A stretch of DNA of 64,000 bases from assembly GCA_030646915.1 (NCBI GenBank), contig JAUSKT010000021.1, forward strand, positions 19,707 through 83,706. Reading direction: 5' to 3'. Below are positions 8,886 to 54,304 of the stretch, in pieces. Each line of letters begins with the position of its first letter. The first letter of the stretch is position 1. A program made the position numbers and the translations under genes. The notes beneath the pieces are model-generated. The model worked only from the letters and a program-made list of their open reading frames with translations. It ran no database searches and had not been told where the DNA came from. The DNA comes from a bacterium (lineage in GTDB: Bacteria > Patescibacteriota > Minisyncoccia > UBA6257 > 02-FULL-45-10c).

Positions 8886-9077
8886 TAAATATCGGGAAAT
8901 TATTCTTTTGCTGAGGTCGATCCTTTGAATAGCGAAAGCGAAACAGGGGATAAGCAAAAAGGAGTAATTTTTTAAAAAGATTAACAAAATTAATAAATAA
9001 TATAAATTTTCTTCTTAGGTTTGAACGTCGATAATTTAGATCTAAAGAGAAAAAGGTCAAATAAAAATAAATTAAAT

Positions 9078-37224: not shown

Positions 37225-37944
37225 ATGCCCGCTCCAACATTTTCTTTCGTTTTTCCGACTTATAATGAAAAGGATAATATTAAAATTTTAATCCCGACTA
37301 TTATTAATATTTTTAAGGGATTAATTATAGAAATTATTATTGTAGACGACGGATCCACTGACGGCACCATTGAAGAAATACAAAAATTTCAAAAAGAACA
37401 CCTCAATATTTTTTTAGTTAAAAGAAATAGATTAGGGGGCATCGGATCCGCTTTGATTGCTGGCTATAACTCGGCCAAAGGAGAATATATAATTTCTTGC
37501 GATTCCGACCTGTCTTTTTCTTTTGATGGCATTAAAGAAATAGCAGATAAATTAATGCTCGGCACCTATGATTTAGTTTTAGGCTCCAGATATTTGAAGG
37601 GCTCTTATTACGAGGCGCCAAATTCCAATATTTTGAAAAAGAAATTAATCAGTAAATTCGGCAATATTTTTTTGCGTTTTGTTACTTTCATTCCAGTAAG
37701 TGATTTTTCAGCTGATTGCCGGGGTATAAAAAATTCGATTTGGAAAAATCTTGGCGTTAAAAGCAGGGATAATTTCATGCTTTTTGAGACTGTTTGGAGG
37801 GTTTATAGGGCTGGAGGATCTATAAGAGAGGTGCCGGTAAAATTTCACGATAGGAGGTTTGGCGTTTCAAAATTAAAATTAAGAAAAGAATTTTTTGTAT
37901 TTTTTTCGCAATTATTCAAATTATATTTTAGCCATGAAAAATAA
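37225..37944 (+). CDS. GT2 polyprenyl-phosphate glycosyltransferase (Dpm1-like)
   Basis: FSFVFPTYNEKDNI; IIVDDGSTDGT. Confidence 0.8.
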   Translation: MPAPTFSFVFPTYNEKDNIKILIPTIINIFKGLIIEIIIVDDGSTDGTIEEIQKFQKEHLNIFLVKRNRLGGIGSALIAGYNSAKGEYIISCDSDLSFSFDGIKEIADKLMLGTYDLVLGSRYLKGSYYEAPNSNILKKKLISKFGNIFLRFVTFIPVSDFSADCRGIKNSIWKNLGVKSRDNFMLFETVWRVYRAGGSIREVPVKFHDRRFGVSKLKLRKEFFVFFSQLFKLYFSHEK

Positions 37945-38830
37945 AAGAATACGAGTAGTAGTTTTCGGCAAATCCGGATTATTAGGGGGAGAATTTTTTA
38001 GTTATTTTATTTCAAAAAAAATTTCTGTTTTTGGATATGATTCCAAGAGCTGTGATATAACAAAATTTGATCAGATTTTTAAGATTATTAAAAAAATAAA
38101 ACCCGATATAGTAATAAATTGCTCGGGTAAAATAAATATTGATAAATGCGAGGAAGATCCGGTAGGCGCATATATGGTAAATTCTATTGGTCCAGGCAAC
38201 ATCGCCCGTGCTTTGAAACTTTTAAATAAAAAAACCGCTTTTTTTCATATAAGCACTGCTTATATTTTTGGCGGCAAGGCATCGGGGGGATATAAAGAGA
38301 ACTCGGACGTTAAGCCGGTTAATATTTATGGCTGGTCTAAATTTTTAGGAGAAAAAATCGTAGAACAGGAATTAAGAAAAAATAGCTTGGTTAAATATTT
38401 TATTATAAGAACTGGTTGGATGTATGGCGGATTTCGAAGGACTTTTATTGAAGACATTATTGATTCTTTGCGCACGAATAAAACTATGAAGTTAGTTACT
38501 GATAATTATAATGTTCCAACCTGGACAGGAGATTTGGTTAGGGGTGCGGTCGCTTTATTAAAAAATAAAAAATTAAAAAGCGGAATTTATCATTTGTTTA
38601 ATAGTTATAAAAAACCCGTGGCTAAATATGACATAGGAGTTTTTATGGCTGGTATCTTGAGAATCAACACTAAGAGGCTTGAGCCGTGCCGATATAAGGA
38701 TGTTTCTAAAATTGGCAAGCCGGGAAATACTATATTGATAAATTCAAAGGTCAAGAATCTGCCTGATTGGAAAAAATCTCTGGCTCGTTATTTAAAGCTT
38801 AAATACTGGAACAGTTTTAATTTGAAATAA
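37934..38830 (+). CDS. NAD(P)-dependent 4-keto-6-deoxyhexose reductase (RmlD/Rmd-like)
   Basis: [17 protein letters not shown]; RmlD-like length. Sits just upstream of gmd. Start set at MKNKRIR. Confidence 0.7.
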
Positions 38831-38856
38831 TCTTTGATTTGCCTTATATTTCATTT

Positions 38857-39840
38857 ATGAAAAAAAGAGCTTTTATAACCGGAATTACAGGGCAAGACGG
38901 TTCTTATTTAGCAGAACTGCTTTTATCAAAGGGATACGAAGTTCATGGACTGGTAAGAAGGTCTAGTACTTTTAACAGGGAAAGGATAGCTGATATATAT
39001 AAAAATCTTCAGAGTACGAAAAATATTTTTTTGCATTATGGCGATCTTTCCGATTCGAGTAATTTGGCGCGATTGATTGTTAAAATTGATCCTAATGAAA
39101 TATATAATCTTGGAGCGCAAAGTCACGTCGGGATTAGTTTTGATATGCCGGAATACACTTCGGATGTTGATGCGCTTGGAGCATTAAGGCTTCTTGAGGC
39201 AATAAAGGAATCCCATATTAAATGCAGATTTTATCAGGCTTCTTCTTCGGAAATGTTTGGAAATTCTCGCCAAAGAATTCAAAATGAAGAAACGCCATTT
39301 TCTCCAAGGAGTCCGTATGGAGTTGCAAAAGTTTTTGCTTATTTAATAACTAAAAACTTCAGGGAAGCTTACGGACTTTTTGCCTGCAATGGGATTTTAT
39401 TTAATCATGAATCTCCGAGAAGAGGTGAGAATTTTGTGACAAAAAAGATTTCTAGGGGCGTAGCTGAGATTGCTCTCGGTAAAAAGGATAAAATTTATTT
39501 AGGAAATTTGAATGCCAAGCGCGATTGGGGTTATGCCCCGGAATATGTTGAAGCAATGTGGCTTATGCTTCAGCAGAAAAAGCCGGATGATTATGTAATT
39601 GCAACTGGCGAAGCACATTCAGTCCGAGAATTTGCTGAGGAAGCATTTCGGTGTATAGGGATAAAGAATTGGAAAAAATATATAGAAATTGATAAGAGGT
39701 ACTATCGTCCGACAGAAGTTGATTCGCTTACTGGTGATGCTTCAAAAGCTAAAAAAATCTTGAAATGGCACCCAAAAACTAAATTTAAAGATTTAGTTAA
39801 AATAATGGTGGAAGCTGATTTAAATTTTCTAAAAAAGTAA
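38857..39840 (+). CDS. gmd: GDP-mannose 4,6-dehydratase (paralog 1)
   Basis: [28 protein letters not shown]; YGVAKV (YxxxK); NHESPRRG. Confidence 0.92.
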
Positions 39841-39845
39841 AATAA

Positions 39846-39876
39846 TAAAAAAGCCGCACTTTAGCGCGGCTTTTTC
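39846..39876. terminator. bidirectional intrinsic terminator (A-run, hairpin, U-run)
   Basis: aaaaagccgcactttagcgcggcttttt between convergent genes. Confidence 0.7.
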
Positions 39877-39880
39877 AATT

Positions 39881-40201
39881 TTAATCATTAAATGGTAGAT
39901 ATAAATCTCCAATTTGCCAATCTGCTACCCCTTTAATAATATCAGCCATTTCTTTATGTTTTGGATGCGCTTGGAATGCTTTAAAAGCATCATTATTTTC
40001 AAAGACAGCTATTTCTACTAAATCTACGTTTTTACGAAGATCCAAATTCCAATTAACTTTCCAAAAAATAATTCCAGCCTCTTCTCCGCCACAATCTTTA
40101 TCTAGCGTTTGATAACGATTACAAATTTCTTGTTTTACTGTCTCTGGAGTGTCTGGCTTGAATGAAATTAATACCACGTGCCATAGTTTATTTTGTTCCA
40201 T
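39881..40201 (-). CDS. Dabb-family stress-responsive alpha/beta-barrel protein (copy 1)
   Basis: WHVVLISFKP...VDLVEIAVFEN. 106 aa. Paralog of 45039-45368. Confidence 0.75.
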   Translation of the reverse strand: MEQNKLWHVVLISFKPDTPETVKQEICNRYQTLDKDCGGEEAGIIFWKVNWNLDLRKNVDLVEIAVFENNDAFKAFQAHPKHKEMADIIKGVADWQIGDLYLPFND

Positions 40202-40246
40202 AGTTTATTCATAAAACATAGATAAAATATCAGAAGTTTCATAGAT

Positions 40247-41365
40247 ATGGTTAATTTTAAAAAATCAGCGAAAGTTTGCTTTGTTATCCCTGAATACGAC
40301 CCAGATATCTCAACCCATTTTAATTATTTATATGATTTTATTAAAGTTTTATTTTCAGATTTTGATATTTTTTTATTGATAGAGAAAGGAGCTGGAATGC
40401 CGAATTTCGCGGATCCAAATAGGGTTTACATCCAGAAATTTAAATTTACTCCGTTAAGAATTATAGAGAATTTTTTAGTTATTTTTTATATCAGGCTGAT
40501 CGGCTATAGAGATTTTTACATCCACTATTCTTTTTTATCCGCCTTTAACGCCTCTTTAATTTCAAAGTTTGTAGGAGGAAGAACTTTTTATTGGAATTGC
40601 GGTTTACCGTGGCTTTACTCCAGAAATTATTTTCGGGAAAAATTTGAACGCGCAGCGTATCGTTTAGTTACTTTTTTAGTAACCGGTACAGAGGGATTAA
40701 AAAATCAATATGCCAAGCATTATCAATTGGGGCTTTCTAAAATTAAAGTGCTTCCAAATTGGATCAATGTTAACCAATTCCATAAGCAATTTGAGATTAT
40801 CCAAGATTTAAAATTAAAGCTAAACATTTCTCCGAAAGATAAGGTTATATTATTTGTCCATCGGTTATCCAATAGAAAAGGAGCTCATTATCTTCCTAGG
40901 ATTATACAGGGCCTGGAAAACGAGAAAGTAGTATTACTAATCGTCGGCGGGGGACCGGAAAGAGAAAAGATTGAATTGGAAATTAGGAAGTCTAGACTAG
41001 AAAAAAAAGTTCGTTTTTTAAATTCTATTCCTAATAAAGAAATCCAAAATTATTTTGGCATAGCAGATATATTTATTATGCCGTCAGAAGAAGAGGGTTT
41101 CCCGCATGTGCTTTTAGAGGCGATGGTCGTTGGCGTTCCTTTTGTGGCGTTTGATGTGGGGGGCGTAAAGGAAATTTCTCCGCCGGAATCTTTAGGATAT
41201 ATCGTAGCTCCTTATGATATAAAAAGTTTTTCTAACAAAATAAAAGAACTTTTGCATTATAATGGAGATCGGATTGCAAAATTGTCTGAAATTGAACAAA
41301 GTTGGGTAAAACAGTTTGATTTATCGATTACCCTTGATAAATTCAAGGATATAATATTAAAATAA
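40247..41365 (+). CDS. glycosyltransferase family 4 (GT-B)
   Basis: EEEGFPHVLLEAMVVGVPFVAFDVGGVKEI. Confidence 0.88.
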   Translation: MVNFKKSAKVCFVIPEYDPDISTHFNYLYDFIKVLFSDFDIFLLIEKGAGMPNFADPNRVYIQKFKFTPLRIIENFLVIFYIRLIGYRDFYIHYSFLSAFNASLISKFVGGRTFYWNCGLPWLYSRNYFREKFERAAYRLVTFLVTGTEGLKNQYAKHYQLGLSKIKVLPNWINVNQFHKQFEIIQDLKLKLNISPKDKVILFVHRLSNRKGAHYLPRIIQGLENEKVVLLIVGGGPEREKIELEIRKSRLEKKVRFLNSIPNKEIQNYFGIADIFIMPSEEEGFPHVLLEAMVVGVPFVAFDVGGVKEISPPESLGYIVAPYDIKSFSNKIKELLHYNGDRIAKLSEIEQSWVKQFDLSITLDKFKDIILK

Positions 41366-41387
41366 ATAATTTGGAATAATATAATTT

Positions 41388-42386
41388 ATGGCGAACAAGA
41401 AAACAGCTTTAATTACCGGCATAACCGGCCAGGACGGATCATATCTAGCCGAACTGCTTTTATCAAAGGGATATGAAGTTCATGGAGTTATGAGGCGGTC
41501 AAGCTCCCTTAATATCGGGAGAATAGAACATATTTTTGATTTTAATGATGTTAGAGAAAAAACCCATTTGCATTATGGAGATTTAGCAGAAGGAATTGAT
41601 CATTTACTTTATGAATTGCAGCCAGATGAAGTTTATAATCTTGGTGCTATGAGCCATGTTAAGATTTCTTTTGATATCCCAATTTATACTGGGGACATCA
41701 CTGGATTGGGAGCAGCCAGAATTTTAGAAGGTATCCACAAGCTTGGTTTGACTCAAAAAACTAAATTTTATCAGGCTTCGTCTAGCGAAATGTTTGGCAT
41801 TACTCCGCCTCCTCAATCAGAAACTAGCCCATTTAATCCAGTTTCGCCTTATGGATGTGCAAAGCTTTATGCTTACTATATGACTAAAGCTTACCGTACT
41901 GGCTATGGAATTTTTGCGGCTAATGGAATTCTTTTTAATCATGAAAGCGAGAGAAGGGGTATGAATTTTGTAACTAGGAAAATAACTCGTGGAGTAGCAA
42001 GAATAAAACTGGGATTGCAGGATAAGCTGATTCTTGGAAACTTGGATGCTAAAAGGGATTGGGGGCATAGCCGCGATTATATGGAAGCTATATATATGAT
42101 TATGCAGCACGATAAACCAGAAGATTGGGTGGTGGCGACCGGCGAATATCATACTGTCAGAGAATTTATGGAAGAAGTTTTTAAATATTTCGGATTGGAT
42201 TGGGAAAAACATGTTGTCATTGATAAGGTTTATAATCGGCCTAATGAAGTGCCCGCGCTTTTAGGCGATGCTGCCAAGATTAAAAAAGTTTTAGGCTGGA
42301 AGCCGAAAGTTTCTTTTAAGGAATTGGTCAAAGTGATGTGTGACAGTGATTTTGAAAAAGAAAAAAAGGATTCTCATATAGCATAA
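41388..42386 (+). CDS. gmd: GDP-mannose 4,6-dehydratase (paralog 2)
   Basis: [28 protein letters not shown]; NHESERRG. A run of about 35 nt (gaactgcttttatcaaagggata[c/t]gaagttcatgga) is near-identical to paralog 1. Confidence 0.92.
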
Positions 42387-43601
42387 ATGAAAGTTTTTTT
42401 AATCACTTCCAAATTAAGTTTTAAAACTGGCGGCGGCTCAATCATAGAAATGGATCTTACGGCCCGCGAACTTCAGCGGCTTGGCAATGACGTCACGGTC
42501 ATAACTATTTTTTCTCAGCATAATGAGATACTAAAACCTCTGCCTTATAAAGTAATTGAAGAACAGATTAAATCTGGAAAACAACTAGATATCTTATTTG
42601 GTCTTTTAAGAATACTCAGAAAATATTCTAATAAGGCGGATGCATTTCACATTGACGGCTTTATGCTTTATGGCGGCGGATTGTATCGGCGACTTGGCGG
42701 CAAAGTGCCGATCCTCTGTTTCATCAACCGGGAGCTGACCGCTTGGCCGGATGAAACGAATTCTTTTTTTCAAAATTCTGCGGCTAGCTCATTTCTTAAC
42801 GGCCTTAAAAGAAAAATCCGCTGGTATATTGAACGCCATATTTTTATTTATTTTGCCAACGGATTGGATTTCGCCACATTTGAAAATCCTTTTTTGGAAC
42901 AAAAATACGTGGATTTCGGTTTGAAATTAAAATCCGTCGGGAAGACCCTCATCATCGGCGGCCCGTATCCTTTCAGTAAAGTCATGAAGGAAAACGGCAT
43001 CACCGAAGATTCTTACCGCAAGCGGAACAAAAAGACCGGCAAAATAACTCTCTTATTTTCCGGAAGAATGGTGGCGGGAAAAGGATTTGATTTTATCATC
43101 ACGGCATTTTCTAAAATCAAAAATAAGGATAATTTTCGCCTGGTTTTGACTGGAAGCGGCCCGGAAGAGAATCTAGTTCGGCAATTAATCAAGGATTTAA
43201 ATCTTGATTCTTACGTGGAATTGCCTGGTTGGATTTCTAGGGCAGAACTGAATGATATTCTGAAAAAAACTGACATATTTATTCAGCCTCTTTGGCGACC
43301 ATTTTTATCTTCATTGGCACTTTCAGAGGCTATGGCATTCGGCATACCATCTATTGTTCCTAGTGGAGGTGGATTGGCTTTTGTAGCTGGAGACAGTTGC
43401 TTAACCTTCAAGCCAGGGAATGTGGATGATCTGGCTGCTCAGCTTGAGAAACTCGGTTCCGATTACGATCTGCGCGCGGAGCTTTCGCACCAATGTTATA
43501 TTCGGCTTAATAAAGAAGATGTCAGTTATGAAAAAACTATGCCCAAGATAAGTAAAATTTTACAGGATTTGGCAGCTAAATCGAAAAAGAAACATCTTTA
43601 A
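42387..43601 (+). CDS. glycosyltransferase, GT-B fold (GT4-like)
   Basis: LSEAMAFGIPSIVPSGGGLAFVAGD. Patchy higher GC. Confidence 0.7.
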   Translation: MKVFLITSKLSFKTGGGSIIEMDLTARELQRLGNDVTVITIFSQHNEILKPLPYKVIEEQIKSGKQLDILFGLLRILRKYSNKADAFHIDGFMLYGGGLYRRLGGKVPILCFINRELTAWPDETNSFFQNSAASSFLNGLKRKIRWYIERHIFIYFANGLDFATFENPFLEQKYVDFGLKLKSVGKTLIIGGPYPFSKVMKENGITEDSYRKRNKKTGKITLLFSGRMVAGKGFDFIITAFSKIKNKDNFRLVLTGSGPEENLVRQLIKDLNLDSYVELPGWISRAELNDILKKTDIFIQPLWRPFLSSLALSEAMAFGIPSIVPSGGGLAFVAGDSCLTFKPGNVDDLAAQLEKLGSDYDLRAELSHQCYIRLNKEDVSYEKTMPKISKILQDLAAKSKKKHL

Positions 43602-43643
43602 TTTTATTTTGGAAATTGGAGTATGTGTGATAAATTATAAAAT

Positions 43644-44936
43644 ATGAAAAATCCGAATTATACAACTATAAAAAAATGCCGGATTTGCGGCAATTCTAAT
43701 TTAGTTAAAGTTTTAGATTTTGGCAGGCGGCATATAGGATGCACTCCTGTTAAAAGCAATAAAAATAATAAACTGGCAAAAATAAAAATCCCGCTAGTTG
43801 CTGTTCTTTGTGATCGACGGAAGAATAAATCCGCTTGCGGCGCCGTGCAATTATTGAACACGGTGAACGGAGACCTGGTATACCGGAATATCTTTTATAG
43901 GACGGCGACTAATCCCATGATGCGTGATGCCATGAATAATGTAGTGAAAGATTGCATGGGAAAATTAAATCTGAAGAAGGATGATTATGTTCTGGATATC
44001 GGTTCCAATGACGGCACCCTGTTGACTTATTATCCGAGTTATCTGAAAAGGATCGGCATAGATCCGACTCTGAATATTGATTTCAGTAAATTAGACCCTT
44101 CTATAAAAACCGTAACAGATTATTTTTCCAAAAAAGCCGCTCTCAAAGCCAGTGATGGCACTCTTTATAAAGCAATCACCGCAATCGCTATGTTTTATGA
44201 TTTGGATGATCCTCTCGCCTTCCTTTCGGAAATAGAATCTTCCTTGGCACTAGACGGAATTTTCTGCGTACAAATGAGTTACTTGCCAACTTCTCTTAAA
44301 ACGCTGAATTTTTATGATGTTATTCATGAGCATCTTTTGTATTATACGCTCAGTGTATTTAATCACTTAGTGGAAAAAAGTAATCTTTATATTTTTGATG
44401 TTTCTTTTAATGATGTAAATGGTGGAAGTATCAGGGTTTTTCTGACCCATAAAAACAATGTCCGGCCAGTTTCTTCGGAGGTCAATAAAATTCTCAAAAC
44501 CGAAAGTTCGATGAAGTTATCTGATATTTCTACTTATAAAGAATTTTCTAAAAAAATCCAAAATCTTAAGAAAGTTACCCGCCAGGTGATTTTAAATGAA
44601 ATAAAGAATGGCAGTTTAATGATCGGTCTTGGCTCTTCCAATAAAGGCAATACTCTTCTTGAATTTTTTGATATTGATAAGAAATTATTGCCTTACATCG
44701 GCGACAGGAATCCGGAAAAATTTGGCCTGAGAACCGTAGGAACGGATATTGAATTAATTTCTGAAGAAGATGCGAGAAAGTTAAACCCTTCTTGTATGTT
44801 GGTATTAATCTGGTTTTTTAAGGATGAAGTTTTAAAGCGGGAGAAGGAATATCTAGAAAAAGGAGGGAAATTATTATTTCCAATGCCATATCCTTATTTT
44901 GTTACTAAAGATGGAGAGAAAAAAATTGATTGGTAG
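43644..44936 (+). CDS. SAM-dependent NDP-hexose C-methyltransferase-like protein (TylCIII/EryBIII-type with N-terminal zinc ribbon)
   Basis: N-terminal CRICGNS...LDFG ribbon. LDIGSNDGTL methyltransferase motif. About 430 aa, as in this family. Confidence 0.65.
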   Translation: MKNPNYTTIKKCRICGNSNLVKVLDFGRRHIGCTPVKSNKNNKLAKIKIPLVAVLCDRRKNKSACGAVQLLNTVNGDLVYRNIFYRTATNPMMRDAMNNVVKDCMGKLNLKKDDYVLDIGSNDGTLLTYYPSYLKRIGIDPTLNIDFSKLDPSIKTVTDYFSKKAALKASDGTLYKAITAIAMFYDLDDPLAFLSEIESSLALDGIFCVQMSYLPTSLKTLNFYDVIHEHLLYYTLSVFNHLVEKSNLYIFDVSFNDVNGGSIRVFLTHKNNVRPVSSEVNKILKTESSMKLSDISTYKEFSKKIQNLKKVTRQVILNEIKNGSLMIGLGSSNKGNTLLEFFDIDKKLLPYIGDRNPEKFGLRTVGTDIELISEEDARKLNPSCMLVLIWFFKDEVLKREKEYLEKGGKLLFPMPYPYFVTKDGEKKIDW

Positions 44937-45009
44937 GTGAAATAATTTTGTAAAATTAATTATTGAACTTGATTTTAAAGTTAATTATCCTAAATATTTT
45001 TTAAAATAA

Positions 45010-45038
45010 AAAAAGCCGCATGTAAGTGCGGCTTTTTG
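45010..45038. terminator. bidirectional intrinsic terminator
   Basis: aaaaaagccgca-tgtaag-tgcggcttttt. Confidence 0.7.
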
Positions 45039-45368
45039 TTACAATTTACGCGATAATTGAAAATAAATATCGCCAACCTGCCAATCAGCGGCATTTTTAA
45101 GAATATCAGTCAGTTCTTTATGTTTTGGGTGCGTTCTAAATGCCTGTAGAGCATTATTATTTTCAAAAGCAGCTATTTCTACTAAATCTACGTTTTTGCG
45201 AAGATCCAGATTCCAGTCAACTTTCCAAAAGATGATTCCAGCTTTTTCTCCACCACAATCCTTATCAAGAGTTTGATATCGATCGTAAATTTCTTGTTTG
45301 AATATTTCTGAGGCCCCTGGTTTAAATGAAATTAATACTACGTGCCATAATTTATTTTGTTCCACCAA
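45039..45368 (-). CDS. Dabb-family stress-responsive alpha/beta-barrel protein (copy 2)
   Basis: About 75% aa identity to copy 1. A near-identical nucleotide stretch includes gctatttctactaaatctacgttttt. Confidence 0.75.
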   Translation of the reverse strand: MVEQNKLWHVVLISFKPGASEIFKQEIYDRYQTLDKDCGGEKAGIIFWKVDWNLDLRKNVDLVEIAAFENNNALQAFRTHPKHKELTDILKNAADWQVGDIYFQLSRKL

Positions 45369-45550
45369 ACCGCCTCTTCAATTCTCTTTATCTTTCTGGT
45401 AAAAAGATTATCACAAAAATAATATTTTTGTCAATTAATAAAAATAGATTTTTAACTGTTGTAACCCCCACTTCTCGTTTTAAGTTAAATGGGTGTATAG
45501 AATTCAAGTATTATTGAGATAAGCCCTATATAAGTGCTAAAATTATTCAT

Positions 45551-46264
45551 ATGTTAAATAAGCAAAAACTATCTTTATCCATATTTTTTCCTTGTTATAA
45601 CGATAAGGGCACCATTGCTTTTATGGTTTTGGAGGCTAAAAAAGTTGCTCAGCAGCTTACGAATGATTTTGAAATTATTGTAATAGATGACGGATCAACA
45701 GATGGAAGCCGGGAATTGCTTTCTGCTCTTAAGGAACAAGTTCCTGAATTAAAATTGGTTTTTCATGAAAAAAATGGCGGCTATGGCGCTGCATTGCGAA
45801 GCGGTTTTAAAGCGGCTACGAAAGAACTGGTTTTTTACACTGACGGAGACGCGCAATATGACGTGAGAGAATTGCCATTATTGCTTTCAAAATTAACTCC
45901 AGATGTTGATATTGTAAATGGCTACAAGATTAAAAGATCCGATCCTTTGCACCGCATTATTGTCGGATATATTTATCAATATGTAATGAAATTGGTTTTT
46001 TGGCTACCGATCAAGGATCCTGATTGTGATTTTCGGCTTATTCGGAGAAAAGTCTTTGATAAAGTAAGCCTACAAAGCTCAACCGGAACTATTACTATAG
46101 AACTTGTTAAAAAGATCCAGCAAGCCGGTTTTCGTTTTAGCGAAGTTGGGGTTCATCATTATTTTCGCATTTACGGCAAATCACAATTTTTTAATTTTAA
46201 GCGCGTATTCAAGACTTTATGGAAATTGATGTTTTTATGGCTTGAGCTTATGATTTTATCATAA
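45551..46264 (+). CDS. GT2 polyprenyl-phosphate glycosyltransferase (Dpm1-like)
   Basis: LSIFFPCYNDKGTI; IVIDDGSTDGS; TDGDAQYD. Confidence 0.85.
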   Translation: MLNKQKLSLSIFFPCYNDKGTIAFMVLEAKKVAQQLTNDFEIIVIDDGSTDGSRELLSALKEQVPELKLVFHEKNGGYGAALRSGFKAATKELVFYTDGDAQYDVRELPLLLSKLTPDVDIVNGYKIKRSDPLHRIIVGYIYQYVMKLVFWLPIKDPDCDFRLIRRKVFDKVSLQSSTGTITIELVKKIQQAGFRFSEVGVHHYFRIYGKSQFFNFKRVFKTLWKLMFLWLELMILS

Positions 46265-46266
46265 TT

Positions 46267-46860
46267 ATGAACATATTACTTAAGGCATTGGCGTCTCGGC
46301 CAGAAATTTCTATTTTTCTCCGTAAAATCGTGGAGATTAATTTTCGAAATCAGAAAAAAATTATAAGACAGAACTTTGAGGCTAATCCAAGCGATCGCGT
46401 GCTAGATATTGGCTGCGGCACGGGCGAGTTTTCTCCCAGCTTTTCAAAAAGCAAATACGTTGGCATTGATATTGATCAAAAAAACATAACCTACGCGAAA
46501 AAACATTATAAAGGCGATTTTCGGGTTGCTGATGGCACGCAATTGCCATTTGAAAATGGAAGCTTTGATAAGATTTTAATAGTTGGAGTATTCCATCATC
46601 TTTCAACTGCGGACTGCAAATTAGTTTTTGGTGAGATGAAGCGAGTATTAAAAAAAGGAGGACAGATTTTGATTATGGAAGATACCAAGTCTGATAGATT
46701 TCTTGTTAAATTTATGCAGTCAGTTGATCAGGGAGCTTATATAAGGAATTTTTCTGAATGGAATTCTTTATTATCCAATAATTTCTATATTCAAAAATCA
46801 GGCTCTTTTAATAACGGCGCCTGCTTCTATTCCTATTTTTTGATCAAGGATTCTTCTTAG
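46267..46860 (+). CDS. class I SAM-dependent methyltransferase
   Basis: VLDIGCGTGEFS motif I. Confidence 0.75.
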   Translation: MNILLKALASRPEISIFLRKIVEINFRNQKKIIRQNFEANPSDRVLDIGCGTGEFSPSFSKSKYVGIDIDQKNITYAKKHYKGDFRVADGTQLPFENGSFDKILIVGVFHHLSTADCKLVFGEMKRVLKKGGQILIMEDTKSDRFLVKFMQSVDQGAYIRNFSEWNSLLSNNFYIQKSGSFNNGACFYSYFLIKDSS

Positions 46861-46906
46861 ATTTGATGAATTCGGCAAATAATGAGAATATTTAAATACT
46901 ATTTTT

Positions 46907-47335
46907 ATGATAAAAAATATAAAAGTAAAAAATTCAGGCATAGTTAAATTGCAATTTTTTGATGATTTTCCTGATGGTAATTTAGTTATTGGCGAGTCTG
47001 AAAGAAATATACCCTTTAAAATTAAAAGATTTTACTTTATTGATTATTTATTTAACCCTAAGGCTAACCGAGGTTTCCATGCTCATAAAAAGACTGAACA
47101 AATAATTTTCTGCATTAACGGCTCTTTTGAACTTAATTTGGATGATGGCCATGATAAGCAAAAAATTGTTATGACCGATCCGCATATTGGCATCCGATTA
47201 GGGCCGAAACTTTGGCATACCATGAAGAAATTTTCTCGGGATTGCGTTATTTTAGTTGTTGCAAATGATTTTTATAAAAAGTCTGATTATATACGGGATT
47301 ATCAAGAATTTTTAAGGTACATTAAAACCAAGTAG
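46907..47335 (+). CDS. dTDP-4-dehydro-6-deoxyglucose 3,4-ketoisomerase (FdtA/QdtA, WxcM-like cupin)
   Basis: RGFHAHKKTEQIIFCINGSFELNLDDG is characteristic of the FdtA cupin. 142 aa. Confidence 0.75.
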   Translation: MIKNIKVKNSGIVKLQFFDDFPDGNLVIGESERNIPFKIKRFYFIDYLFNPKANRGFHAHKKTEQIIFCINGSFELNLDDGHDKQKIVMTDPHIGIRLGPKLWHTMKKFSRDCVILVVANDFYKKSDYIRDYQEFLRYIKTK

Positions 47336-47338
47336 TTT

Positions 47339-48085
47339 ATGGAAAAACCGGTTTATGAAAGCATGTATCTGCACGAAGAGGATTTTTGGTGGTTTTTAGG
47401 AATGAGAAAAATTTCTGAAATTTTTCTGAGGAACTATATAATGCCTTCTGTTGATAATAAAATTTTAGATGCCGGTTGCGGCGGAGGCGGGAAATTTAAG
47501 ATGCTCAGTCAATATGGAAAAGTTTATGGAATTGATATTTCACAAGAGGCATTGAAATATTCAAGATTAAGAAATATTGCTGAAGTATCTTATGGATCGG
47601 TAGAAAAAATACCCATGGGGAATAATGAATTTAATCTGGTAAATTGTAATGATGTTTTATATCATAGTGAAGTCGGCAATGACGTTCTGGCAATGCAGGA
47701 ATTTGCCAGAGTACTCAAACCAGGTGGAATACTTTTTATCCGGGAGGCAGCATATGATTGGCTTCGCGGGCATAATGATAAAGTAGTATGGGTAAAGCAC
47801 CGATATTCAAAAAGAGAAATTATTTCAAAGTTAGAAGCAAATGGTTTTGAAATATTAAGGATCAGTTATGTCAATTGTTTCCTTTTCCCCATTGCTTTAA
47901 TTGTCAGGCTTTTTGAGCGGGCGATTAATCGGAATGACATCCCTGAAGATATTTATAATCCGCCTTTTTTATTGAATTCATTATTTACGCGCATACTTAA
48001 TGCCGAAGCAACTGTATTATCATTTATGAATTTGCCCTTCGGTCTATCCATTGCCTGTGTAGCTAGAAAGAAAAAAACGGTTTAA
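47339..48085 (+). CDS. class I SAM-dependent methyltransferase
   Basis: ILDAGCGGGGKFKML motif I. Confidence 0.75.
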   Translation: MEKPVYESMYLHEEDFWWFLGMRKISEIFLRNYIMPSVDNKILDAGCGGGGKFKMLSQYGKVYGIDISQEALKYSRLRNIAEVSYGSVEKIPMGNNEFNLVNCNDVLYHSEVGNDVLAMQEFARVLKPGGILFIREAAYDWLRGHNDKVVWVKHRYSKREIISKLEANGFEILRISYVNCFLFPIALIVRLFERAINRNDIPEDIYNPPFLLNSLFTRILNAEATVLSFMNLPFGLSIACVARKKKTV

Positions 48086-48107
48086 GATTGAAACAAGTTC
48101 TATTATT

Positions 48108-49193
48108 ATGATTCCATTTGTAGACTTTACCCGAGAATATAAGGAAATAGGGAAGGAAATCGATGTCGCCATTAAGGAAGTTTTGGAACGGGGTTTTTTT
48201 ATTTTGGGTCCGGAATTAGAAAATTTTGAGAAAAAATTTGCAGAATATTGCGACGCCAAATATTGCGTGGGCGTAAATTCTGGAACTGACGCTTTATATC
48301 TGAGTTTGTTATGCGCAGGCATAGGTCCGGGGGATGAGGTGATAGTGCCGGTTAATACTGCCGTGCCTACGGCTATGGCCGTTTCCATGAGTGGAGCTAA
48401 GCCGGTTTTTGCAGATTGCGACGAGAATTTTTTGATTGATATTGATAAAATTCCCCAGCTTTTGACAAAAAAAACCAAAGCAATCATGCCAGTGCATCTT
48501 TATGGCCGGGCTTGCGACATGGGCCGTTTAAAAAAGTTGGCGGTTGCCAATAAATTATTTTTAATTGAAGATTGCGCCCAGTCTGCCGGCGCGGAATGGG
48601 ACGGAAAAAAAGTAGGAACTTTGGGAGATTTCGGATGCTTCAGTTTTTATCCGACAAAAAATCTCGGAGCTTACGGAGACGGAGGAGCGGTAATTATAAA
48701 TAATGAAGATTATTACAAAAAATTGCTCGCCTCCCGTTTTTATGGGCAGGCTGACCGGGTCCATTGTTCTGGATTCGGCATTAACAGCAGGCTGGATGAA
48801 ATCCAAGCCGCTATTTTAAATGCCAAACTTAAGCATCTTGATATTTGGAATAATGCAAGGCAAAAAATTGCCGATTTATATAGGAAATTAATAACCAATC
48901 CAAAAATTATTTTGCCGGCTGCCAGTAACGATAATAATCATATTTATCATCTTTTTGTCATAAGAGCTCCCAAAAGAGATTCGCTTAAAAAAATCCTTGA
49001 AGATAAAGGTATTAAAACAGCAATTCATTATCCCGCACCCCTTTCTCGGCATTCTTTTTTTGCCGGCGCAAAACAAGAATTATTTCCTATGGCGGACCAA
49101 TATGCTGGAGAAATACTTTCGTTGCCTATGCATCCTTTCTTAGAAGAATCTGAAATCAGGGAAATCGCCGACGTTTTAAATAATTATGCATAA
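48108..49193 (+). CDS. DegT-family PLP-dependent aminotransferase (FdtB/QdtB-like, dTDP-3-keto-6-deoxyhexose 3-aminotransferase)
   Basis: FVDFTREYKEIGKEIDVAIKEVLERGFFILGPELENFEKKFAEY. Adjacent to the FdtA-like gene. Confidence 0.8.
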   Translation: MIPFVDFTREYKEIGKEIDVAIKEVLERGFFILGPELENFEKKFAEYCDAKYCVGVNSGTDALYLSLLCAGIGPGDEVIVPVNTAVPTAMAVSMSGAKPVFADCDENFLIDIDKIPQLLTKKTKAIMPVHLYGRACDMGRLKKLAVANKLFLIEDCAQSAGAEWDGKKVGTLGDFGCFSFYPTKNLGAYGDGGAVIINNEDYYKKLLASRFYGQADRVHCSGFGINSRLDEIQAAILNAKLKHLDIWNNARQKIADLYRKLITNPKIILPAASNDNNHIYHLFVIRAPKRDSLKKILEDKGIKTAIHYPAPLSRHSFFAGAKQELFPMADQYAGEILSLPMHPFLEESEIREIADVLNNYA

Positions 49194-50889
49194 AAATACA
49201 GTTGTTAAGCCAGTATTCATAATACTGTTATTAAGCGTTCTTTTTACGGTTATAATCCAACTGGATCTTACTCGGGCTATTTTTTTTGATAATTATTTGA
49301 ACACTAGGCAGATCAGCGGCGTTAATTATTATTTGTCTTTAATTAATGAAAGTTCCAAGGGTAATTGGCAATTGGGAAGCCCTTATATTTTAGAATGGCG
49401 TTATGCGCCTTATTTATATCCCGCTTTAAATATTAACGCGCCGGGGCTGTTTAAAAGAGTTTTGGGCTTGGATATAAAATTATATGCTGCAATTATGGGG
49501 TATTTGTCTGTTTTTTCTATTATGGCCTTGATGTTAATGGCCTTTTCTTACATCTTTAGTTCTAATTATTTTGGTTATTTATTGGCAACAGTCTTTATTT
49601 TCTTTCCTAGGGTAATTATGTGGAATCGAACTTTGAGTCCAGAAATAAATTTTATACCTTTAGCGTTATTTTTAATTTTTTATTTCTCTAATTTTAAATT
49701 TTGGAAACGAGAAATAGGCTTAGCGCTTTCAACTGGAATTTTATTTTATATATATCCATATTATTGGACCTTTGCTTTAGTGCTTTTGGGAATAAGCGAT
49801 TTCTGGAAATTTTGGGATGAGAAGAAGATTATTTGGAATTATTTATATAAATATTTGCTTACTATGGGGCTTGCCTCATGGTATTTAGCCCATCTTTGGC
49901 AAATACAGCACCTTTCTTATTATCGCGAGACCATGGCAAGGATAGGTTTTCTTTATAGCCGTTTGCCGGCAGGCTGGTATACTCAAGCAGTTTTATTATC
50001 ATCTCTGATTATTTATTTCTTTTTAAAGAAATATATCTTTCCAAGATTAGATATAAAGATGATTGCTGATGGCGCCTTAAATAAGATTGTTGCCGGCTTG
50101 GTGGCTAGCTTAGTTGTCCTTAATCAGCAGCTTATTACTAATGTGCAAATGGAATTTAATTCCCATTATTTCCCGGTCATTCTGGTTTTTCTGGTTGCTT
50201 TTTGGGGAAGCTTAACTTTTATCTTAATTAGTAATTTTAATTTTTATAAAAAGAGCATTTTGATTTTTTTATCTTTTCTCCTGGTGACAGGATTAGTCGC
50301 GGTTAGAATATATCAGATATCTGCAAGCTTTGGCCCAGATGGTTATATCGGGGGCAAGGCAGATGGGGTAGTTGAATGGCTTTTAAAAAATCAGATTCAA
50401 GATAAGGTGGTATATGCGCCCGAAGATCTTGGCGATGAGATTAATTTGTGGACCAATAATTATTTAGTTTGGAATGACAACCAGGCATTGCAATTGACAC
50501 CGACCAATGAACTCATTGATCGTTTTACTTATTTTGATATTACCAACCAGAATATCACTAATCATCTTTTTGACCGGCAAACGGCAATTTTCGGACAAAC
50601 CTTTATTTCTTCAATGCAAAAAGACAATGTGATAAATAATATTAAGGCCAAGCTTTCAGGCAAGAATTTTGTGCCAGCCACTTTAGCGGAATATACAAAG
50701 TATGATTTTGAACCAATGTATAAAAAAAGGATTCAGCCAGACAGCGCTGAATTTAATAAATACTTGGAAAAATTCCATGTTAGTTATTTGGTATACAGGC
50801 AAAAAGATAGGAATAGCATTTACAAATCCGTACCGGGAAAAATTGTTTTTGAAAGCGAGTCTTATTTGATTAAAAAACTGGCGCCATAA
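49186..50889 (+). CDS. large polytopic membrane protein, putative GT-C-fold glycosyltransferase (1 of 3 in tandem)
   Basis: About 12 transmembrane helices. ISGVNYY motif in the first loop. 567 aa. Confidence 0.55.
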   Translation: MHKNTVVKPVFIILLLSVLFTVIIQLDLTRAIFFDNYLNTRQISGVNYYLSLINESSKGNWQLGSPYILEWRYAPYLYPALNINAPGLFKRVLGLDIKLYAAIMGYLSVFSIMALMLMAFSYIFSSNYFGYLLATVFIFFPRVIMWNRTLSPEINFIPLALFLIFYFSNFKFWKREIGLALSTGILFYIYPYYWTFALVLLGISDFWKFWDEKKIIWNYLYKYLLTMGLASWYLAHLWQIQHLSYYRETMARIGFLYSRLPAGWYTQAVLLSSLIIYFFLKKYIFPRLDIKMIADGALNKIVAGLVASLVVLNQQLITNVQMEFNSHYFPVILVFLVAFWGSLTFILISNFNFYKKSILIFLSFLLVTGLVAVRIYQISASFGPDGYIGGKADGVVEWLLKNQIQDKVVYAPEDLGDEINLWTNNYLVWNDNQALQLTPTNELIDRFTYFDITNQNITNHLFDRQTAIFGQTFISSMQKDNVINNIKAKLSGKNFVPATLAEYTKYDFEPMYKKRIQPDSAEFNKYLEKFHVSYLVYRQKDRNSIYKSVPGKIVFESESYLIKKLAP

Positions 50890-50947
50890 CAATAATAGCC
50901 TTTCGAGGTGTTCTAATATAAAATAGGATAATTAGCAAAATAAACTT

Positions 50948-52687
50948 ATGCTCAGCTTTATTTATTCTCGGGAAAAATACACTCTAGTCTTATTAAGTGT
51001 TGCGATTGGAATTTTAATTTCCGCTCCGGCAATTTATTTCCGTTATTTTGACGGCGGATATAAAGGCATAGATTTTTTTGGTTCGGACGCGGAAAATTAT
51101 TATTTAGGGCAAATTCAAGAAATTTATGATGGCCATTGGTTTTCGGGGAACATTTATGTAGAGGAGGGTAAAAATGACCCTTACGTGCAGCAGCCATTGC
51201 CAGCGATGATAATCGCTTTCTTGGGGCAATCTTTAGGAATATCTGCCAGAGACGTTAATGTCCTGACAAAATTTTTATTTCCAGCGCTTTTAACCGTCAT
51301 AGTTTATCTGTTTTTTTCTGCTTTAACTGGCCGTAAAGATTTTGCAATTTTGATGACGATTTTTGTGATGCTGATTCAGGCAAGCTGGATATTTTTTGAT
51401 CCTGGGTCTTGGCTGCCATTTTTATTGAAGGGAGAGTTCAGGGGCACTGATTATAATTTTATCAGCTATGCACGGCCTATTAATCCGCAGATCAGCTCCA
51501 TTTTCTTTTTTGGATATTTATTATGCGCTTGGAAATTTTTCTTCAGCCGTCTTTCTGAAAAAATGGAAAAGATATATGGGATCGCCAGCGCTGTTATTTT
51601 AGGATTGTCTTTTTATATATATTTTTTCACTTTTTCATTTTTATCAGTATTTAACGCGGTTTTATTTTTTTGGTTCTTATATTCCAGGGATTGGATCCGC
51701 CTGAAAAAGACTTTTCTTGTTTCAATCGGCGCCCTGGCCATTGCAGTGCCTTATTTTGCCAATGTTCTGGAAATGATGAAATCGCCGAATTACAGCCAGC
51801 TGGCCCATCGGACGAACATCCTCGAAACTCACAGATTTATTTTCAGCAAAGTGTGGTGGGGGGTGACCGCGCTTTTTCTGCTGTTATATCGCGGATCCCG
51901 CAAGGTAAAAATTTTTACTTTAGCCTTTCTAGCCACGGCATTTTTAGTCACCAATCAGCAGTTAATCACCGGGAAAACTTTACCGCTTCCAGCCCATTAT
52001 CATTGGTATTACATTGCTCCAATTGGGGGCGCGATTCTTGTTTACCTTTTTTTTATGTATTTTGAAAAGTTAGCCGGTCTTTTTGTATCGCGTTTGGCAA
52101 TGTTATTTTTTATTTTAATATCTTTTTATGCTGGTTTTTTGTATCAAAAAATTTCTTATACAAAACAGTGGGACTATTTTATTTATCAGCAAAGGTATGC
52201 CCCGATATTGTCTTGGTTAGATCTGGATATTAAGAAAGAAAGTGCTATTTTTACTAACGAAGATTTATCAGGGCTTATTCCTGCCTATACCCGCCATAAT
52301 GTTTATTATTCAGGTCTTTTAACTGATTCCCTGATAAGCGAAGAAAGGATTAGGCATTCTCTTTATGTTTATTTTTTTCTTAATGGCGTCACTGAAGATT
52401 CGGCTAGGGATTTTTTTTACGATAATCGGGATTGGGTGGGCAGCCAAATTTTCAGCGACTATTATCGGCAAAAAAGTGGCTGCCATGGATGTTTCCCGGA
52501 TTCTATTTTAGACGGATTTATCCAGGAATATCGGAAATTCCTTAAAAAGGGTTTTTTGGAACAGATTAAAAAATATCAGGTTGATTACGCCGTCTGGGAT
52601 AAAGAGAAAAATCCGGAATGGCGATTGGACCGTTTTTTTAATGAAAAAGTATATGAGAAAGATAATATTATCGTTTATAAATTTTAA
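50948..52687 (+). CDS. large polytopic membrane protein, putative GT-C-fold glycosyltransferase (2 of 3)
   Basis: FGSDAENYYLGQ loop motif after TM1. 579 aa. Confidence 0.55.
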   Translation: MLSFIYSREKYTLVLLSVAIGILISAPAIYFRYFDGGYKGIDFFGSDAENYYLGQIQEIYDGHWFSGNIYVEEGKNDPYVQQPLPAMIIAFLGQSLGISARDVNVLTKFLFPALLTVIVYLFFSALTGRKDFAILMTIFVMLIQASWIFFDPGSWLPFLLKGEFRGTDYNFISYARPINPQISSIFFFGYLLCAWKFFFSRLSEKMEKIYGIASAVILGLSFYIYFFTFSFLSVFNAVLFFWFLYSRDWIRLKKTFLVSIGALAIAVPYFANVLEMMKSPNYSQLAHRTNILETHRFIFSKVWWGVTALFLLLYRGSRKVKIFTLAFLATAFLVTNQQLITGKTLPLPAHYHWYYIAPIGGAILVYLFFMYFEKLAGLFVSRLAMLFFILISFYAGFLYQKISYTKQWDYFIYQQRYAPILSWLDLDIKKESAIFTNEDLSGLIPAYTRHNVYYSGLLTDSLISEERIRHSLYVYFFLNGVTEDSARDFFYDNRDWVGSQIFSDYYRQKSGCHGCFPDSILDGFIQEYRKFLKKGFLEQIKKYQVDYAVWDKEKNPEWRLDRFFNEKVYEKDNIIVYKF

Positions 52688-54304
52688 ATGTCATTCTCTT
52701 TTTTAAAAGAAAATAAAGTTTTTTTGGCAATTTTATTTTTAATTTTTTCTACTTATCTTTGGCTGGCCTGGCAGCCGATAGAAAAATTACTTTCCGGATT
52801 TTTAGTAGATGATGCCTTTTATTATTTTAAGTCGGCGGCTAATTTAGCAAATAGATTAGGCCCGACTTTTGATGGGGAACATCTGACTAATGGCTACCAT
52901 CCTTTGTGGATGGGGATTAATGCAGTTATTTATTATTTATTCCCCAATAATAAAATATTGCCCATTCATTTAATTCTGACTTTGGCGGTTTTATTTTTTG
53001 CTGGCGGCACATTGCTTTGTTGGAAGATTATTTCCCAGCTTGTCCAAGACAGGACTATGCAGATTCTTTTACTGCTTGCTTACGCCTTGAATCCTTGGAA
53101 TATCAGTAATATTTTGAATGGATTAGAAACTTCACTGGCGCTTTTTCTTCTTATATTGCTTTTCTGGCTTTTTTTAAGGATTTTGAATGGTAAAGATAGA
53201 ATCACGGATTTTTTGTTGTTGGGCATGGTGGGAGGCCTGACTGTTTTGGCAAGATTAGATTATGGATTATTTTTAGCGGCTATTCTTATTTTTTTCCTCT
53301 TTAAGAAAAAGTATTCTTGGCCGTCTTTACTTGCTTTTTCTTTGACCGCTTTTCTTTTGGCGGTGCCCTGGTTTTTATATAATTATTTTTATTTTGGTTC
53401 GTTAATTCCGGCGAGCGGCTTAGCTTATACATTAATTAATCACCGTCTATGGTTTTATAAGGATCGGAATTTAACTCAAATTCTGCTTTGGTCTTTGTAT
53501 AATTTTATTGGCACTATTACTTTTACTCTAAAGACCATCGGTCTGCCAAATTTTTATTCCGCTTCCAATCTATGGAAATCTTTTTGGTCTCTTGGAGTTA
53601 TTTTTTTTCCGATTATTGCAGGCATAATTTATTTTTATACAGTAAAGAGAGATCAATTTAAAGAATATTTAAGAAAGCTTATGGCTTCTAATGAATGGAT
53701 AGTCTTTATCATTTTTTTTATTGCTTACTTTGGCTTGATTGTTGTCCATGGGGCAATTCGATGGTCTAGTCGAGAATGGTATTTTGCGAGCTTTCCTTTT
53801 TTGGTTGTTATTTTTCTTGCCTTGCTTTTAAGTAGATCCTCTATGGAAATTTATTGTAAAAGAATATTACTGGCACTTGCCTTATTATTGGGCATTTCTT
53901 TTGGCATATCTTGGGCGGGCATTTTTACCCAATATAACGGCCAATTGGAAGCGTATAACGCTGCTTTGTGGGCTCGGGATAATCTTCCAGCTAATGTGCG
54001 TATTGCCGCTTTTAATAGCGGGGTTTTAGGCTATTTTAGCGAACGCTTTATCATGAATTCCGACGGGCTTATAAATAACAGCGCTTTTGAGGCGTTGAAA
54101 GAAAATCGTTTATGGGAATTATTTAAAAAGGAGCGCATTGATTATCTGATGGATTATGAAATCACCTTAACTTACCGCTTTAAATCTTTTTTGGGGATAG
54201 AAAATCCAATGGCAGAAGTTAACAGAATAAATATTCCTATTGTTTTAGCCCCTTCGTCGGAGAGTTATGCAGGTTCGCATATCGGTATTTTCCAGCTGAA
54301 GTAA
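52688..54304 (+). CDS. large polytopic membrane protein, putative GT-C-fold glycosyltransferase (3 of 3)
   Basis: FLVDDAFYYFKS loop motif after TM1. 538 aa. Confidence 0.55.
   Translation: MSFSFLKENKVFLAILFLIFSTYLWLAWQPIEKLLSGFLVDDAFYYFKSAANLANRLGPTFDGEHLTNGYHPLWMGINAVIYYLFPNNKILPIHLILTLAVLFFAGGTLLCWKIISQLVQDRTMQILLLLAYALNPWNISNILNGLETSLALFLLILLFWLFLRILNGKDRITDFLLLGMVGGLTVLARLDYGLFLAAILIFFLFKKKYSWPSLLAFSLTAFLLAVPWFLYNYFYFGSLIPASGLAYTLINHRLWFYKDRNLTQILLWSLYNFIGTITFTLKTIGLPNFYSASNLWKSFWSLGVIFFPIIAGIIYFYTVKRDQFKEYLRKLMASNEWIVFIIFFIAYFGLIVVHGAIRWSSREWYFASFPFLVVIFLALLLSRSSMEIYCKRILLALALLLGISFGISWAGIFTQYNGQLEAYNAALWARDNLPANVRIAAFNSGVLGYFSERFIMNSDGLINNSAFEALKENRLWELFKKERIDYLMDYEITLTYRFKSFLGIENPMAEVNRINIPIVLAPSSESYAGSHIGIFQLK

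Follow-up and report, generated by a model that had tools for sequence, protein, structure and literature searches.

Do two direct repeats that bracket a sugar operon mark it as a mobile island, or are the repeats themselves the part that moves? The question is raised by a 64-kb window of contig JAUSKT010000021.1 (the whole stretch of DNA analysed here), a long glycan and nucleotide-sugar locus, coded almost entirely on one strand, in a metagenome-assembled genome of an uncultivated bacterium of groundwater type, from the Patescibacteria, or candidate phyla radiation (CPR). Here two antisense genes of the dimeric alpha/beta-barrel (Dabb) family, each with a hairpin terminator, stand on either side of four genes for a GDP-linked sugar, which we call the cassette. 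A preliminary description took the 4.8-kb cassette for an acquired or duplicated module. We find it probable that the repeats are instead paralogous antisense terminator-Dabb units, duplicated in this lineage, old and under selection, and that the bracketed genes are core genes beside which the Dabb unit varies.

The repeats and the genes between them

Coordinates are positions in the window, and the layout was obtained from the list of open reading frames (ORFs) together with Pfam and NCBIfam. Gene order and strands are as first described: gmd1, hairpin A, Dabb1 (minus strand), GT4a, gmd2, GT4b, the 3-C-methyltransferase, hairpin B and Dabb2 (minus strand). GT4 and GT2 stand for glycosyltransferases of families 4 and 2. 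The features are:

37895-38830, plus strand: RmlD-like reductase (Pfam/NCBIfam)
38839-39840, plus strand: gmd1, GDP-mannose 4,6-dehydratase, last gene of the upstream unit (TIGR01472, 527.5 bits, cutoff 415; PF16363 full-length)
39846-39877, hairpin at 39847-39875, no strand: terminator A, predicted bidirectional (A-tract, GCCGC stem, T-tract), between the convergent gmd1 and Dabb1
39881-40201, minus strand: Dabb1, 106 aa, dimeric alpha/beta-barrel family (PF07876, 48.4 bits)
40247-41365, plus strand: GT4a, family 4 glycosyltransferase, first cassette gene (PF00534, 2.4e-40)
41388-42386, plus strand: gmd2, second GDP-mannose 4,6-dehydratase (TIGR01472, 462.1 bits, cutoff 415; match to a GMD in the PDB, 1.6e-121)
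42387-43601, plus strand: GT4b, family 4 glycosyltransferase, its start abutting the gmd2 stop (PF00534, 1.8e-25)
43644-44936, plus strand: NDP-hexose (nucleoside diphosphate hexose) 3-C-methyltransferase of the TylC3/TcaB9 type (PF08421, PF13489, PF08484)
44939-45563, no strand: 625-bp indel segment holding terminator B, Dabb2 and divergent promoter-like sites, missing in the collinear contig L047 (blastn)
45009-45037, no strand: terminator B, predicted bidirectional, homologous to terminator A (25/29 nt)
45039-45365, minus strand: Dabb2, 108 aa (PF07876, 38.4 bits), its GTG start aligned with the ATG of Dabb1
45407-45434, minus strand: sigma-70-like promoter match upstream of Dabb2 (TTGACA-16-TG-GATAAT, 11/12 consensus matches), the best in 36-50 kb
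45514-45543, plus strand: promoter-like site just upstream of GT2, within the indel segment (10/12 consensus matches, with TG)
45551-46264, plus strand: GT2 glycosyltransferase, first gene of the downstream unit (PF00535)

The mechanical ORF of Dabb2 starts at a TTG at 45368; the product on record is the 108-aa form from the GTG. The downstream unit continues from GT2 with a methyltransferase (MT), FdtA, a second MT and DegT. Both junctions, with identical proteins, are present in independently assembled Logan contigs of run SRR13727527, so a chimeric join is unlikely.

The direct repeat begins in the A-tract of the hairpin and ends at the Dabb start codon (about 39846-40205 and 45008-45368). 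The copies are about 360 bp long, in register and 5164 bp apart, in agreement with the first estimate of about 350 bp. Their homology ends precisely with the start codon on one side and the hairpin on the other. As only constrained sequence is recognisable at such divergence, the original duplication may have been longer. The two proteins are 74% identical, close to the first estimate of about 75%. The hairpins and the 5' coding parts had also been called near-identical at the nucleotide level, a claim that the alignment contradicts: the coding sequences are 80% identical, and the repeats match without a break over at most 28 nt, the next longest exact run being 15 nt. A 15-nt near-tandem repeat (GTGCCATAGTTTATT / GTTCCATAGTTTATT, 17 nt apart) at 40178-40209 coincides exactly with the Dabb1 start codon, where repeat copy A has its 5' edge; it could be a junction footprint or a chance match in AT-rich DNA.

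The pattern AAGCCGC-N-GCGGCTT is found at only two sites in the 64 kb, terminators A and B, with a chance expectation of 0. The hairpins had been described with a common stem, aagccgca...tgcggctt. This holds for hairpin B, with its perfect gccgca...tgcggc stem, but hairpin A contains an A-C mismatch. Hairpin A folds at -14.4 kcal/mol on the plus strand (z -3.9) and at -20.1 kcal/mol on the minus strand (z -5.0), hairpin B at -17.6 and -15.7 kcal/mol on its two strands, and all z values, for both hairpins and both strands, lie between -3.9 and -5.3. A terminator scan detects A on both strands and B on the minus strand; the plus strand of B folds equally well. Within 36-50 kb the two hairpins outscore every other terminator-like site. 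Because of this score and the strong folding on two strands we read them as predicted bidirectional terminators, each common to a pair of convergent genes. The four cassette genes would then form one transcription unit between two terminators, and each terminator-Dabb unit would stop transcription from both sides and restart it, giving separate operons. Two-way terminators of this kind illustrate how a long same-strand glycan locus may be divided into separate transcription units.

Related contigs

Four related contigs were found by searching with the methyltransferase, and a search through Dabb in genome and JGI metagenome collections gave nothing closer than 66%. The genes of the four contigs, with amino acid identities to the window, are:

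L047 (Logan SRR22387949): GT4b 84%, methyltransferase 87%, 14-bp gap, GT2 85%, MT 74%, FdtA 81%, MT 83%, DegT 93%; no Dabb at the methyltransferase/GT2 junction
L046 (Logan SRR22388032): GT4a 60%, gmd2 89%, GT4b 80%, methyltransferase 80%, 41-bp gap, GT2 and onward; no Dabb on the whole contig
L042 (ENA groundwater, 15 kb): counterparts of the window genes at 32917 and 34530, a gmd-like gene sharing 54% with gmd1 and carrying its own terminator, 272-bp gap, GT4a 56%, antisense ORF, gmd2 89%, GT4b, methyltransferase 87%, a different hairpin, Dabb (minus strand) 67%, GT2 and onward; a single Dabb copy, following the methyltransferase, and no Dabb ahead of GT4a
L022 (Logan SRR22388050): gmd2 92%, Dabb (plus strand, 4-bp overlap), GT4b 82%; a single in-operon Dabb

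The cassette genes have orthologs in the same order in these relatives, and in three of the four they pass directly into the downstream genes, so the cassette is a conserved core. By this synteny GT4a, gmd2, GT4b and the methyltransferase are vertically inherited genes and not an inserted island. In a blastn comparison L047 aligns collinearly with the window at 43374-44938 and 45564-48358, and the segment between, 44939-45563, is therefore an indel of 625 bp. Between L042 and L046 collinearity is broken by the 598-bp Dabb unit of L042 alone, and in both L046 and L047 the methyltransferase gene runs directly into GT2 without a Dabb gene. Counting the window, the Dabb unit occurs in zero, one or two copies, at three intergenic positions and in both orientations. 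The other genes diverge to differing degrees: the GT4a orthologs are 56-60% identical (L042, L046) and the GT4b orthologs 80-93%, and the downstream GT2, MT and FdtA form a mosaic, with 42-64% in L042 and L046 versus 74-85% in L047.

The preliminary description had suggested that related genomes might lack the cassette and keep a single Dabb copy at the junction; identical synteny without junction polymorphism would have spoken for an ancient fixed arrangement. The Dabb junctions do differ among the relatives, so the arrangement is not fixed in that sense. However, it is Dabb that varies and the cassette that stays, the opposite of what was predicted, and a contig with the cassette absent and a single Dabb at the junction was seen in none of the four relatives.

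These comparisons bear directly on the idea that the cassette is an acquired or duplicated module, with the 350-bp repeats as insertion scars or as tools that drive excision, amplification and exchange. The idea has its attractions: direct repeats surround a functionally coherent operon, a second gmd lies inside it, and glycan loci are generally known as recombination mosaics, as the downstream block is among the relatives. Against it, the cassette genes are syntenic and 80-92% identical in the relatives, and they run on without Dabb in L046 and L047. The composition shows no anomaly either. High and patchy GC content had been taken as a sign of foreign origin, which we reject: the cassette genes have a GC content of 0.33-0.40, compared with a mean of 0.358 +/- 0.035 for the genes of the window (z from -0.8 to 1.2). 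The Dabb genes have the lowest GC content at third codon positions in the window (0.196 and 0.239), a weak signal from about 106 codons. The Pfam scan of the cassette contains sugar enzymes only, with no integrase or transposase; no tRNA insertion sites or structured RNAs were found, and a search for terminal inverted repeats and target-site duplications, including at the ends of the Dabb unit, gave only AT-rich chance matches. A defence-system or phage origin of the Dabb genes and the GT4 genes was also considered and rejected, with no PADLOC or PHROG matches.

As for the repeats as tools, recombination in Escherichia coli requires about 25-30 nt or more of perfect identity, a value that may not hold in Patescibacteria, and RecA recombination falls off strongly as sequences diverge. 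The repeats, 20% diverged and with one identical run of 28 nt, should be poor substrates. Excision or amplification of the cassette could in principle take place but would be expected to be infrequent, and none of the relatives carries such a product. We therefore regard an acquired module as quite unlikely. What survives of that proposal is the duplication, which is real for the Dabb-plus-terminator unit; the cassette is a syntenic core of ordinary composition. As the operon is stable and the small flanking gene is the part that moves, it would be wrong to annotate this locus as a sugar island that is mobile or was acquired recently. The Dabb unit itself could have moved by illegitimate recombination, or by allelic exchange through the conserved flanking genes.

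Some further features of the window and of L042 were observed. Three window genes are more extreme in GC content than any cassette gene: 9021-12680 (a 1219-aa ORF, 0.455), 24470-26299 (0.441) and 22783-23205 (0.234). In L042, the Dabb-free gap between the terminator of the gmd-like gene and GT4a carries an inverted repeat of about 20 nt (5110-5290, CCAGGTAGT...TCTGCGAC / GTCGCAGACTCACTACCTGG), the arms of which flank about 100 bp, one arm having an internal 12-nt tandem duplication. The antisense ORF between GT4a and gmd2 in this contig (6421-7386, minus strand, 321 aa), which makes a second antisense insertion in the locus, is absent in the window and in L046; it has no Pfam match and a weak NUDIX-like PHROG match (E=5e-4). 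The gmd2 ortholog of L042 (7578-8576, 89% aa) is called as two ORFs of 154 and 158 aa, either a pseudogene or an assembly error.

Age and origin of the Dabb pair

Divergence was calculated by Nei-Gojobori counts, where pS is the proportion of synonymous differences and dS and dN are the synonymous and nonsynonymous distances. The Dabb pair has about 63 synonymous sites.

Dabb1 versus Dabb2: pS 0.50, dS 0.81, dN 0.15, dN/dS 0.18
gmd1 versus gmd2: pS 0.66, dS about 1.6, dN 0.38
Window genes versus orthologs in the nearest relatives: pS 0.58-0.77, dS 1.1 to saturated, dN 0.06-0.19
Dabb1 or Dabb2 versus the Dabbs of the relatives: pS 0.69-0.84, dS 1.9 to saturated, dN 0.15-0.22

The pS between the two Dabb genes is lower than for every pair of a window gene and its ortholog in a relative. 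The hairpin is common to both copies, and the terminators of Dabb homologs elsewhere are unrelated to it, that of the L042 copy at the same junction included. This low synonymous divergence and the common hairpin point to a lineage-specific duplication of the Dabb and terminator unit, which would be younger than the gmd paralogy and still old, at about 20% DNA divergence. It probably postdates the split from the known relatives. Both copies retain all the family-invariant residues and the dN/dS is 0.18, so both are maintained by purifying selection. Faster evolution of one copy was tried as an alternative and dropped, as the relative-rate counts of 13 and 9 do not differ significantly (p = 0.52).

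The Dabb genes are the closest paralog pair in the window (74%), followed by gmd (57%), and all other pairs are at or below 35%. A larger segmental duplication was rejected, there being no other pair above this value. At identical residues, the same codon is used in 74% of cases in the Dabb pair and in 52% in the gmd pair. The two Gmd proteins are both above the TIGR01472 equivalog cutoff and, at 57% identity, are old paralogs. The stretch of about 35 nt said to be near-identical between the two genes does exist, as a 34/35 match (38914-38948 and 41451-41485) in the conserved N-terminal Rossmann segment. It is explained by protein conservation and shared codon use, and lies within chance expectation (permutation p = 0.40). 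Gene conversion at this site was rejected on the same test, since a window with 10 of 11 identical codons is expected by chance.

With both families duplicated within 6.5 kb, and gmd coming ahead of Dabb in each case, one could think of a single old tandem duplication of gmd, terminator and Dabb, into which the glycosyltransferases and the methyltransferase were inserted later. However, the gmd pair is more diverged than the Dabb pair in protein identity, dN and pS alike, even though Gmd is normally the more conserved protein. The gmd2 orthologs are 89-92% identical in L042, L046 and L022, L042 carries two gmd types and a single Dabb, and in the window Dabb2 comes after the methyltransferase, not after gmd2. 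A single event for both pairs is thus highly improbable.

A different origin would be that the Dabb at the methyltransferase/GT2 junction is ancestral and was lost twice, in L046 and L047, and that Dabb1 was imported from a related strain with a Dabb elsewhere, as in L022. L042 has a minus-strand Dabb at the same junction, the Dabb of L022 (P0004) is placed with Dabb1 a little more frequently than Dabb2 is, and the 20% DNA divergence between Dabb1 and Dabb2 equals that between these lineages. On the other hand, the hairpin terminator common to the window copies is absent in L042 and L022, and the pS between Dabb1 and the L022 gene (0.75) is higher than between Dabb1 and Dabb2. We consider an import unlikely.

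Duplication within the lineage thus remains our preferred explanation, and several observations weigh against it. The protein tree does not order Dabb1, Dabb2 and P0004: Dabb1 groups with P0004 in 133/300 bootstraps and with Dabb2 in 75/300. The duplication could therefore predate the split from L022, or partial gene conversion could have lowered the pS. This pS is based on only about 63 synonymous sites, and codon bias common to one genome also lowers it; the gmd pair reaches 0.66. There is no close gmd1 ortholog in any relative. The relatives are short metagenomic contigs, which cover neither the rest of those genomes, where extra Dabb copies may lie, nor the gmd1/GT4a junction of close relatives.

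Sugar pathway, Dabb subfamily and known systems

The methyltransferase has full-length matches to sugar 3-C-methyltransferases of solved structure, among them the D-mycarose 3-C-methyltransferase (4rv9, 7.5e-44), TcaB9 (about 1e-31) and KijD1; the structures matched over the full length are 4rv9, 3ndi and 5t64. It consists of a Zn-binding N-domain, an S-adenosylmethionine-dependent methyltransferase domain and a C-methyltransferase C-domain (PF08421, PF13489 and PF08484, respectively). Together with a Gmd above the equivalog cutoff, this full-length homology predicts a C-methylation route for a GDP-6-deoxyhexose, in line with the C-methylated 6-deoxyhexose suggested at the outset. As gmd2 adjoins the methyltransferase gene, the substrate of the methyltransferase would be GDP-linked. 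From what is known of these families, Gmd would convert GDP-mannose into GDP-4-keto-6-deoxymannose, which would be C-methylated, probably at C-3, and then transferred by the GT4 enzymes. The cassette contains no 4-ketoreductase or epimerase, so a reductase encoded elsewhere would have to finish the sugar. The nearest gene of this kind, the RmlD-like gene upstream of gmd1, is one candidate. Taken from its first TTG, the RmlD-like ORF overlaps the preceding GT2 gene by 50 nt (37895-37944); its true start is probably further downstream, as the Pfam match begins at residue 20.

Both Dabb proteins score above the PF07876 gathering cutoff of 25. The AlphaFold2 monomer model of Dabb1 (pLDDT 94.2, pTM 0.83) has the order E-H-E-E-H-E, a ferredoxin-like fold with two beta-alpha-beta units. 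Foldseek matches the model with probability 1.00 to many DABB structures, at TM-scores of 0.7-0.8. Its top structural hits comprise DABB proteins without an assigned function, PeHNL (a hydroxynitrile lyase), olivetolic acid cyclase, SnoaB and At3g17210. Known examples of the fold include Arabidopsis At3g17210/HS1, poplar SP1, olivetolic acid cyclase and the Passiflora hydroxynitrile lyase.

The subfamily to which the window Dabbs belong is narrow, comprising 19 clusters (E<=1e-30) in a set of 1.84 billion representatives. Its invariant residues are S13, C37-G38-G39, N52, D54, R56, K57, E63 and D94-W95, including the motifs DCGG and N-x-D-x-RK. Named homologs of Dabb and the methyltransferase come from Kaiserbacteria, Giovannonibacteria, Parcubacteria, Saccharibacteria, Sungbacteria and Patescibacteria. 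On our count, nucleotide-sugar genes surround Dabb at about 19 of 27 distinct loci, and at 13 loci Dabb is within a few genes of Gmd or of a 4,6-dehydratase-like short-chain dehydrogenase/reductase (SDR). The neighbour is often a true Gmd (the window, L022, L034, L035, L039, L021) or a 4,6-dehydratase-like SDR (L008, L011, L018, L027, L029, L033). Other frequent neighbours are a 3-C-methyltransferase or a DegT aminotransferase, and a methyltransferase is adjacent or close to Dabb in L008, L011, L018, L033, L039 and L042. A conserved trio of gmd, Dabb and methyltransferase in Giovannonibacteria was rejected, as the SDR next to Dabb in L008 and L011 shares only 26% identity with Gmd; its best NCBIfam match is dTDP-glucose 4,6-dehydratase, far below cutoff. 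The association, as seen from gene neighbourhoods, thus appears to be with 4,6-dehydratase-like SDRs in general. Dabb homologs also occur outside glycan loci (L017, L019, L026, L036), so that the functional link to sugars is a statistical one.

Several variants of the subfamily were observed. The Giovannonibacterial Dabbs P0018, P0023 and P0035 (L008, L011) carry a C-terminal CxxC...CxxC tail of about 45 aa that resembles a zinc ribbon, and there are rare NUDIX-Dabb and Dabb-PTH2 fusions (P0170, P0166). In L014 a NUDIX-GNAT gene (1375-2190) lies just upstream of Dabb. In L015 (CAZSQN010000002.1, a 243-kb contig) a Dabb homolog (65%) stands between NeuB and a CMP-sugar cytidylyltransferase. This contig is labelled 'uncultured Gammaproteobacteria', the sole label outside the CPR among the matches, which may reflect a binning or taxonomy error or a transfer.

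In other families the DABB fold supports cofactor-free acid/base chemistry on enolisable ketones. From this chemistry and from guilt by association, Dabb probably works with NDP-4-keto-6-deoxyhexose pathways; in the literature searched, no link between Dabb proteins and sugar pathways was found. A more specific proposal, which we put forward tentatively and with considerable doubt, is that the subfamily is a so far unrecognised accessory to NDP-4-keto-6-deoxyhexose synthesis, acting perhaps as an epimerase, isomerase or tautomerase that needs no cofactor, or by handling the keto-sugar from Gmd-type dehydratases before C-methylation or transamination, and that it moves from one intergenic site of glycan loci to another as an autonomous promoter-gene-terminator minicassette without a recombinase. 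The components are of known kinds, the Dabb family and a mosaic glycan locus, and the locus is useful mainly as a pointer to what this subfamily does. A rare and highly conserved Dabb beside 4,6-dehydratases, C-methyltransferases and aminotransferases in CPR bacteria is a candidate for a missing step or a regulator in rare-sugar biosynthesis. To our knowledge, the surface glycans of CPR bacteria are essentially unstudied.

Around the cassette the window contains a GT2-methyltransferase fusion, PMT_2, DegT aminotransferases, GT2, FdtA, methyltransferases and three large ORFs without Pfam domains. The latter are consecutive (49186-54304; 567, 579 and 538 aa) and have no Pfam match at E<=1e-5. 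The Giovannonibacteria locus L008 has an unannotated 578-aa protein related to them.

Compared with olivetolic acid cyclase, the Dabb profile residues H8, Y30 and HPxH (H79, H82) align with H5, Y27 and H75-P-A-H78 of the cyclase, whereas its catalytic Tyr72 is replaced by Phe in the window subfamily. From the Pfam Dabb family at large, the subfamily differs by its own invariant residues, its near-exclusive occurrence in Patescibacteria and its location mostly in nucleotide-sugar loci. The methyltransferase is a three-domain, full-length homolog of the dTDP-sugar 3-C-methyltransferases TylC3, TcaB9, MtmC and KijD1. A C-methyl 6-deoxyhexose derived from GDP-mannose is virenose, found in the lipopolysaccharide of Coxiella burnetii. 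As in such pathways, the window has a Gmd, a C-methyltransferase and glycosyltransferases in one operon; it differs in that the cassette has no internal 4-ketoreductase or epimerase, and its nucleotide specificity and product are predicted ones. We know of no described C-methyl 6-deoxyhexose pathway that has a Dabb partner.

With mosaic O-antigen and capsule loci the window has in common the conserved flanking genes, the blocks of differing divergence and the indels at intergenic junctions. It is unlike them in that the indel that recurs consists of a single small gene, supplied with a terminator and promoters of its own and carrying no insertion sequence element or recombinase, and in that the host is a CPR bacterium.

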